Sequence record: PQ287649.1
Strand: one strand, 5' to 3'
Length of the DNA: 64,000 bases
From: Pseudomonas phage HHBS47_1
Position 1 is the stretch's first letter. Each line of letters starts with the position of its first letter. Below, one piece after another: positions 9,021-10,697 of this stretch. Both the position numbers and the translations under genes were made by a program. Under the pieces are notes generated by a model. That model was not told where the DNA came from, searched no databases, and worked only from the letters and a program-made list of their open reading frames with translations.

Positions 9021-10697
9021 ATGTCTCAAACGCTGCTGGTACATGGTGAAGACGCCCAATGGATCATTAAACAGGTCTTGAGTGAGGTGTATGACGCCGT
9101 CACTTCGACCATGGGTCCGAATGGTCAGTTGGTGATGATCAAGAATGGGGTCTCCACCAAGACCACCAAGGATGGGGTGACGGTAGCCCGTTCCATTCGC
9201 TTTGCAGATGAAGCCCATGAATTGGTGAACCGGGTAATTACCGAGCCGGCTACGAAGACCGATGAGGAATGCGGGGATGGTACCACCACCACCATCATGC
9301 TGACCCACGCGCTCTATCACCTGTTCAAGGACTTCCCAGGTTTCCAACACCACCGGAACATTGAAGACCTGGTAGAGCGGGTTATTCAACGCTTGGAATC
9401 CATGGCGATTCGGGTGGAAGTGGATGACCCTCGGTTGTATCAAGTGGCCCTGACCTCGTCTAACCAGGATGAAAAGCTCGCCCGACTGGTCAGTGAGCTC
9501 TATGCGAATAACAAAGGGAGTTATCCGGATATTGAACTCAAGGAAGGGGTCAACTTCGAAGACCAGATCGAACAAACCACAGGGCGCACCATCCGCATGT
9601 TCTACGCGAATCCCTGGTTTGCGAAAGGCCATCAAGGGGGTGTGACAGAATTGACGGGGTTTACGGCGTTCGTTATCGATCGTCGGATTGACAAGGAAGA
9701 CACCCAGAAGTTGATTGATGGGGTGAATCACCTTGTAAAAACCCACGAACAACACCTGGTCCTTCCTATTCTGCTGATTGCACGAAGTTTCGAAGAAGCC
9801 GCTAACTCGGCCCTGATGCAATTGAACGCGGCGCACCCAACCCTGGTAGAAGACGGGCGACCTTGGTTGATCCCGTTGAGTACGCCGGTGGGTGGTGCGA
9901 TTGGGACCTCTGAACTGCAAGACATTGCAGTCATGCTGAACGCCCCTATGCTCAGTGACGTAGGGGACCTGACCAAGCTGGATACCCATTCGATCAATGG
10001 TCAACACGGCCAACTGGAACTGGGGGGTAATCGGTCCATCCTGAAGAGTACCACCCCTAAGGATGAAGACCGGATCGAACAACATGCTCGGGGTATTGAG
10101 GAACTGTTGGAGGGGTTTAGCCTCAGTGATAAGTTCTCCGTACGTGCCCGGTATAACGAACGGCGTATTCGGACCCTACGGGGTAAGTTGATCACCATTT
10201 CCGTAGGTGGTGAAACCTATTCTGAAGTCAAGGAACGGGTAGATCGGTACGAGGATGTGGTGAAAGCCATTCGTTCCGCCTTGGAGAACGGTATCCTTCC
10301 TGGCGGTGGCGTATCCCTGGTTAAGGCGGTCTTCGGTACGATCAAGGAAGGCCTCGAAGATAAAGACCAGAGCGCTGAGTTTGCTAAGCGGTATATCAAC
10401 TCAGGCATCGGCAATGAGTTGATGCGACTGTCCACTATTCAGCATAAGCTGTTGTTCAAGGACACGGCGCTGTATAAGGAAAATGGGAGTTTCCATTTTA
10501 ATGATGATTGGCTCAATACACCGACCGTCATGAATCTGGCAACTGGTGAGATTGGTACCCCGGAGGGATTGGGTATTTATGACACCGCGTATGCTTCTAT
10601 CACTGCGCTGAAAGGCGGACTCCAAACCGCTAAGATATTGGCCACTACGAAGACACTGATCCTAGGGGAGAAGTTGTCAGCGGTTAAGGTGCGGTAA
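9021..10697 (+). CDS. GroEL/Hsp60-like chaperonin
   Basis: 558 aa; N-terminal GPNGQLVMIKNG...KDGVTVA and GDGTTTT (GroEL ATP-binding signatures); C-terminal GGGVSLVKA (GroEL GGG motif); terminator follows. Confidence 0.9.
   Translation: MSQTLLVHGEDAQWIIKQVLSEVYDAVTSTMGPNGQLVMIKNGVSTKTTKDGVTVARSIRFADEAHELVNRVITEPATKTDEECGDGTTTTIMLTHALYHLFKDFPGFQHHRNIEDLVERVIQRLESMAIRVEVDDPRLYQVALTSSNQDEKLARLVSELYANNKGSYPDIELKEGVNFEDQIEQTTGRTIRMFYANPWFAKGHQGGVTELTGFTAFVIDRRIDKEDTQKLIDGVNHLVKTHEQHLVLPILLIARSFEEAANSALMQLNAAHPTLVEDGRPWLIPLSTPVGGAIGTSELQDIAVMLNAPMLSDVGDLTKLDTHSINGQHGQLELGGNRSILKSTTPKDEDRIEQHARGIEELLEGFSLSDKFSVRARYNERRIRTLRGKLITISVGGETYSEVKERVDRYEDVVKAIRSALENGILPGGGVSLVKAVFGTIKEGLEDKDQSAEFAKRYINSGIGNELMRLSTIQHKLLFKDTALYKENGSFHFNDDWLNTPTVMNLATGEIGTPEGLGIYDTAYASITALKGGLQTAKILATTKTLILGEKLSAVKVR

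Follow-up and report, generated by a model that had tools for sequence, protein, structure and literature searches.

A GroEL-like chaperonin gene of an EL-like Pseudomonas phage and its relation to gene 146 of phage EL

The question raised by this locus is whether a 558-codon open reading frame in the 64,000-nucleotide stretch of phage DNA analyzed here (from here on, the window) encodes a genuine chaperonin and, if so, whether the gene belongs to the phage or was captured from a bacterial host. A first-pass annotation, made from the sequence alone, had proposed a GroEL-like protein on the basis of four signatures, and all four are present in the reading frame at exactly the position given in Table 1 (GPNG at residues 32-35, KDGVTVA at 50-56, GDGTTT at 85-90, and GGGV at 428-431). 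With TMGPNG at residues 30-35 and Asp-412 in the segment YEDVV, the catalytic aspartate, which we equate with Asp-398 of GroEL, the nucleotide-binding set is complete. In gp146 of Pseudomonas phage EL, ATP is contacted by residues 30-33, 86-90, and 428-430 (PMC7185714), and the four signatures fall together with these segments. The Pfam family Cpn60_TCP1 (PF00118) matched the protein with 94.5 bits against a curated cut-off of 34.3, and PHROG 5725 ('chaperonin groEL') matched it over its full length with E = 2.5e-168, spanning protein residues 2-554 and positions 3-538 of the 540 in the profile. A search of the PDB returned 110 chaperonin sequences at E <= 1e-3, the best of which was 6TMT from phage EL, entitled "Putative GroEL-like chaperonine protein" (1220 bits; 551 of 558 residues identical, 98.7%). 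Residues 1-558 align to 6TMT without a gap, which points to a three-domain subunit; the limits in 6TMT are residues 2-130 and 425-552 for the equatorial domain, 131-188 and 388-424 for the intermediate domain, and 189-387 for the apical domain (PMC7185714). We conclude, on sequence grounds, that the reading frame is a real Cpn60-family gene, and its near-identity to EL gp146 suggests that its product would form seven-subunit rings with ATPase activity.

Table 1. Positions of the chaperonin gene, its flanking signals, and the lysin gene in the window
Feature	Position	Strand	Description
Promoter-like motif ATTAATAAACCTATATTACTCAGGTG, containing TATATTAC (8970-8977)	8959..8984	+	Weight matrix score 17.3 bits
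Shine-Dalgarno-like AGGAG	9010..9014	+	6 nt before the chaperonin ATG; direct reading; unchanged across six EL-like phages
Chaperonin gene, orthologue of EL gene 146	9021..10697	+	ATG start, TAA stop, 558 aa, Cpn60/GroEL family
Intrinsic terminator	10705..10750	+	15-bp interrupted stem, 5-nt loop, 11 T
Lysin, orthologue of EL gp188; reported but disputed chaperonin client	61348..62226	+	292 aa, 100% identical to EL ORF188

The identity of the protein with EL gp146, which the first-pass annotation had proposed, was borne out both by the PDB match and by ORF146 of the EL record AJ697969, to which it is again 98.7% identical. Comparison with EL gp146, the chaperonin of phage OBP, and their relatives placed the phage proteins first: after 6TMT, the PDB matches were OBP 6HDD (1e-51) and then, at a distance, cellular Hsp60/GroEL proteins at about 1e-35 to 1e-30. 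A tblastn search of 50,697 phage records found the chaperonin at 97.8-98.9% identity in seven EL-like Pseudomonas phages, followed by Erwinia phage RisingSun at 40% and others lower; 259 phage records matched in all, and in 236 of these the match covered at least 80% of the length. Across its whole extent, the window is colinear with positions 140038-204020 of EL at 96.7-98.1% DNA identity, and its identity to phiRU (97.3-98.3%) is about the same. The chaperonin gene is flanked by homologues of EL ORF145 and ORF147, in the gene order of EL. Its GC content is 52% and that of the window 49.6%; the P. aeruginosa genome is about 66% GC. An exact look-up of the chaperonin sequence in a collection of 15 billion proteins returned no match, and the window therefore represents an EL-like phage that is identical to no record searched. 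We conclude that the source of the window is an EL-like jumbo phage that infects Pseudomonas aeruginosa and that its chaperonin is an already known one, a 98.7%-identical allele of EL gp146 at the same genomic position. We also note that record PV472050.1 (MIZ-Pa99) is EL-like by sequence (chaperonin 98.9%, DNA about 97%), yet its taxonomy line reads Straboviridae, which is probably an error in the deposited record.

The chaperonin gene differs from its EL counterpart at 50 nucleotides, which alter 42 codons synonymously and seven non-synonymously, a balance that we count as a sign of selection. The seven substitutions, written from the window to EL, are E10K, W14G, E243K, V247A, A264T, G315A, and G464A, and all of them leave the ATP-contact segments of EL gp146 (PMC7185714) untouched. 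When six EL-like chaperonins were compared, Trp-14, Glu-243, and Ala-264 were absent from the five other sequences. The idea that variation is clustered in the apical domain was dropped: 6 of the 16 variable columns among the six EL-like chaperonins are apical, compared with 36% of the length, which is no enrichment.

The first-pass annotation had further claimed that the gene is preceded by a promoter element of the TATATTAC type, is followed by a strong terminator, and forms a single-gene transcription unit. The exact TATATTAC octamer is not enriched: the window has two copies where 0.8 would be expected, and as many arise in 20 of 100 shuffles. We therefore abandoned it as a recurring promoter word, its copy number not being significant, and turned instead to a weight matrix derived from the nine sites that the EL record annotates as 'putative phage promoter' (core ATTTTAAACCTACATTATTC...G). 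By this measure, the motif upstream of the chaperonin gene (Table 1) keeps every invariant position of the nine EL sites except for a C in place of T. Its 17.3 bits make it the sixth best site in the window, compared with about 30-36 bits for the annotated sites; the four window orthologues of annotated EL promoter sites, at 2752, 11568, 23876, and 40915, score 30-33 bits, and a second intermediate, unannotated EL-type motif at 1066-1091 (+) scores 20.7 bits. The background is low, with 10.7 bits for the best non-motif site in the window and 0.04 sites per window at >=17.3 bits in shuffled sequence. Further, the core AAACCTACATTAT, allowing at most two mismatches, occurs six times in the window, always on the + strand, compared with 1.5 copies expected, and none of 100 shuffles reaches six. 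The distance from the upstream motif to the ATG is typical of annotated EL sites. Its core is identical in six EL-like phages, but this conservation is uninformative because nearly all of the intergenic region is equally invariant. Thus, the proposed promoter stood as a match to the phage's own motif, but not as an octamer of significant frequency, and the site is weak and carries no promoter annotation in the EL record. We conclude that a weak but significant copy of the phage's own promoter-type motif precedes the chaperonin gene, where it may act as a promoter.

Such a motif fits with expression of the EL chaperonin by 15 min after infection (PMC7185714) and with the AT-rich early promoters used by the virion RNA polymerases of phages of this kind (PMC7598289). 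Genes for RNA polymerase beta subunits are annotated inside the region of the window in the RefSeq EL record, and a sigma-70 scan around the chaperonin gene gave one match, on the opposite strand, which is fewer than in shuffles; this paucity is consistent with reliance of the phage on RNA polymerases of its own. At the 3' end, the claim of a strong terminator proved correct: the hairpin occupies 10705-10740, 8 nt past the stop codon, is followed by 11 T at 10740-10750, and folds at -24.6 kcal/mol (z = -3.4), which none of 200 shuffles equals. The terminator is conserved in six EL-like phages, among which the window alone has an extra T at 10717 that forms a 1-nt bulge in the 5' arm. The 3' end of the proposed single-gene unit is thus well defined, but no terminator was found between ORF145 and the chaperonin gene and, because of this, read-through from ORF145 is possible. 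A single-gene transcription unit is plausible.

The annotated lack of a co-chaperonin gene nearby was examined in 146 translated small ORFs of 45-235 amino acids, made up of 44 from the window (chosen greedily without overlap), 38 annotated in the same region of EL, and 64 from the remaining EL genome. A Pfam scan of the 146 (window and annotated EL ORFs) detected no Cpn10, within limits at which a Cpn10 match weaker than E = 0.0018 for a single member, or 0.1 for copies shared between the window and EL, would have passed undetected. E. coli GroES, M. tuberculosis Cpn10, human Hsp10, and T4 gp31 served as queries; with phmmer and hmmsearch, the best matches among the 146 ORFs and the six frames of the window had E values of 0.19-0.9 at <7 bits, and the co-chaperonin search by hhalign reached a maximum probability of 3.8%. 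In the hhalign controls, GroES found M. tuberculosis Cpn10 at 99% and T4 gp31, a proven GroES-fold lid, at 0.1%. Because the control missed gp31, a lid of novel sequence could be invisible to these searches. No groES adjoins the chaperonin gene in the manner of a canonical groES-groEL operon. In RisingSun, the neighbors of the chaperonin gene are thymidylate synthase and kinase genes, homologues of which do not adjoin the chaperonin gene of the window, and no co-chaperonin is annotated beside it. The idea of a shared neighbor was given up when an 86-aa ORF upstream of the gene here and an 86-aa ORF downstream of it in RisingSun proved to have zero similarity, and no conserved adjacent partner emerged between the window and RisingSun. 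Overall, the annotation was right in that a gene resembling GroES/Cpn10 turned up neither in the six frames of the window nor among the small ORFs annotated in EL, and the absence of a sequence-detectable co-chaperonin now covers all of the latter.

How the protein works can be carried over from experiments on EL gp146 (Bracher et al. 2020), from which the window variant differs by its seven substitutions. EL gp146 is an active ATPase that assembles as a 14-mer, in which two seven-membered rings are in 1:1 contact; at physiological salt, ATP makes the two rings come apart, and non-native protein is bound only if nucleotide is present (PMC7185714). It neither binds nor responds to GroES, has no lid extension, and has a shallow, narrow αH/αI groove; it does not refold rhodanese, and purified gp146 alone prevents aggregation (PMC7185714). 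The substrates used by Bracher et al. were all non-cognate, and these authors propose holding and release without encapsulation (PMC7185714). We put at roughly 85% the probability that the gene encodes an Elvirus GroEL-like chaperonin, the gp146 orthologue, that acts as an ATP-regulated holder and is probably transcribed by a phage RNA polymerase. By this account, the resting state would be a tetradecamer of two heptameric rings with low affinity for substrate; ATP binding would split the tetradecamer, with all apical domains adopting one substrate-binding conformation, and staged ATP hydrolysis would return the chaperonin to the double ring and free the substrate. The chaperonin would, in this way, prevent the aggregation of phage proteins as an ATP-regulated holder and not as a folding cage. 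A phage RNA polymerase would presumably transcribe the gene from the weak upstream motif and/or by read-through from ORF145, and the transcript would end at the terminator described above.

We ranked the alternatives behind this open-ring holder, with an encapsulating chaperonin second and a hidden cofactor third. An encapsulating foldase, in which the single heptamer formed after ring separation closes as a lidless hollow sphere round its substrate, shares the ATP-driven separation of the rings with the preferred model and draws on the ADP-bound spherical heptamer of Molugu et al. (2016), a cryo-EM structure of the 9 Å class as described in PMC7185714. However, the crystal structures at 3.5-4.0 Å and the cryo-EM structure at 3.45 Å show open rings only, neither ADP nor ATPγS yielded the spherical state again, and both the failure to refold rhodanese and the lack of a lid extension on the apical domains speak against a cage (PMC7185714), so we regard encapsulation as improbable. 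The third model supposes a lid or cofactor that is encoded elsewhere in the phage genome and is unrelated in sequence to GroES and T4 gp31. Bracher et al. (2020) explicitly leave room for this, naming two possibilities for EL that "cannot be ruled out", a distant homologue of GroES and an unrelated cofactor (PMC7185714); further, about 87% of PHROG families are without known function, the small ORFs beside the chaperonin gene lack a functional annotation, and the gp31 control shows that GroES-fold lids can escape sequence comparison. It is opposed by the lack of any Cpn10, GroES, or gp31 signal in the 146 small ORFs and the six frames of the window, by the lack of a conserved neighbor of the chaperonin gene in RisingSun, and by the properties of EL gp146, which prevents aggregation alone and in which the αH/αI groove, the site of GroES binding, is narrow and shallow (PMC7185714). 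We consider a hidden lid still less probable than encapsulation.

The first-pass annotation had itself named the outcome that would speak against a phage chaperonin, namely a best match to bacterial GroEL together with a neighboring groES, as expected of a host groEL captured recently as a moron and dependent on host GroES. Membership of the Cpn60 family is the one point in favor of such an origin. The best match is a phage protein (E values of 0 for EL gp146 and 1e-51 for OBP, compared with about 1e-30 for cellular matches), the identity to E. coli GroEL is 22% (PMC7185714), no groES is adjacent, the base composition of the gene is phage-like at 52% GC, and EL gp146 is indifferent to GroES (PMC7185714). 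A host-derived moron is thus excluded. We also entertained, as unlikely, that Elvirus phages encode a partner of the chaperonin that is an orphan in sequence (a lid or a release factor) or that the chaperonin serves as a timer. In the latter case, a speculation of Bracher et al., lysin would be held inactive and non-native until ATP falls late in infection (PMC7185714), and the chaperonin may hold gp188, and possibly other lytic proteins, until that drop. We left these ideas standing because lids of the gp31 type escape sequence searches and because the natural clients are unsettled.

The lysin concerned is encoded in the same window, and the proposed match of a 292-residue endolysin about 50 kb away to EL gp188, a characterized lysin, was correct (Table 1): its ORF starts 50,651 nt beyond the chaperonin stop codon. 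The protein carries a PG_binding_1 domain (E = 1.4e-6), and its PHROG matches are to lysis and baseplate-hub muralytic domains. Its proposed role as a chaperonin substrate fared less well. Kurochkina et al. (2012) found, as summarized in PMC7185714, that gp188 associates with the chaperonin and is protected from aggregation, but in the hands of Tafoya et al. (2013) gp188 needed no chaperonin to fold or to function and did not bind it (PMC3821690). The standing of gp188 as a natural chaperonin substrate is therefore disputed. We note that RNA polymerase beta-like genes immediately precede the lysin gene and that tblastn finds the same adjacency in RisingSun, Joad, and FishSpeaker, so the arrangement appears, from these comparisons, to be conserved across distant chaperonin-encoding jumbo phages. 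A second lytic protein is encoded in the window alongside the chaperonin and gp188; this homologue of EL ORF183 (2543 aa; 45555..53186, - strand) has a Glyco_hydro_19-like muralytic segment at residues 2099-2151. A study of the EL chaperonin and lytic proteins reportedly included a fragment of gp183. Bracher et al. cite a paper whose title refers to the effect of the chaperonin on EL "lytic proteins", in the plural, which suggests that the chaperonin was tested on more than one of them.

Two other features of the window were noted. A perfect tandem duplication at 62855-63109 (+; 2.0 copies, period 127 nt, 100% identical) sits in the homologue of EL ORF190, which starts at 62431; RefSeq EL lists the gene as a 'virion structural protein' of 516 aa. 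Since a repeat unit of 127 nt shifts the reading frame, the ORF190 homologue stops after 184 codons, at a TGA at 62983-62985. Neither EL nor any of the seven EL-like phage records has the duplication, which may have arisen by mutation very recently or may be an artefact of assembly or an edit. The other feature is a full-length match to Rfam Intron_gpI at 56013-56385 (+), which is just below threshold (46.2 bits compared with a gathering score of 50; E = 5e-10). This group I intron-like RNA lies directly 3' of an HNH_3 endonuclease ORF (54745-56016) and between pieces of RNA polymerase beta-like genes, with flanking ORFs at 53217-54662 and 56611-59814. The EL record already annotates a 'putative intron-encoded HNH endonuclease', and Vibrio phage VP4B has a related RNA-like element in the same place without the endonuclease, a stretch of 64 nt being 91% identical. 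No match was obtained in the window with Rfam at its gathering threshold or in a tRNA scan.

The main value of these results is confirmatory and negative in that the match to gp146 is verified and a host moron is excluded. EL gp146 was the first phage-encoded chaperonin to be characterized. Its structures were determined by crystallography and cryo-EM (PDB 6TMT-6TMX). The natural substrates, a possible cofactor, and encapsulation as opposed to holding are questions of that already known system, and they call for experiments, not for more analysis of this sequence.

Among known systems, the closest is EL gp146 itself (ORF146, CAG27240, UniProt Q2Z0T5), which is of the same length and has the same neighbors, terminator, and upstream motif; every ATP-contact residue is identical, and the difference lies in the seven substitutions. 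OBP gp246 (PDB 6HDD) and RisingSun gp190 belong to the same PHROG family and are homologous over their full length, but they are distant in sequence, at 1e-51 and 40%, respectively, and their neighboring genes are not conserved. With the bacterial GroEL/GroES system (E. coli, PDB 1AON), the chaperonin shares the Cpn60 fold, seven-membered rings, the nucleotide pocket, and the three-domain subunit. At only about 22% identity to E. coli GroEL, however, the EL type has 1:1 ring contacts whereas those of GroEL are staggered, neither has nor binds a GroES partner, and forms stable single rings with ATP; further, it has a shallow αH/αI groove, lacks the allosteric salt bridges, and shows no sign of encapsulating its substrate. 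T4 gp31 and RB49 CocO are likewise phage solutions to protein folding by way of a chaperonin system, but those phages encode the lid and borrow the ring of the host, whereas the phage of the window encodes the ring and no detectable lid.
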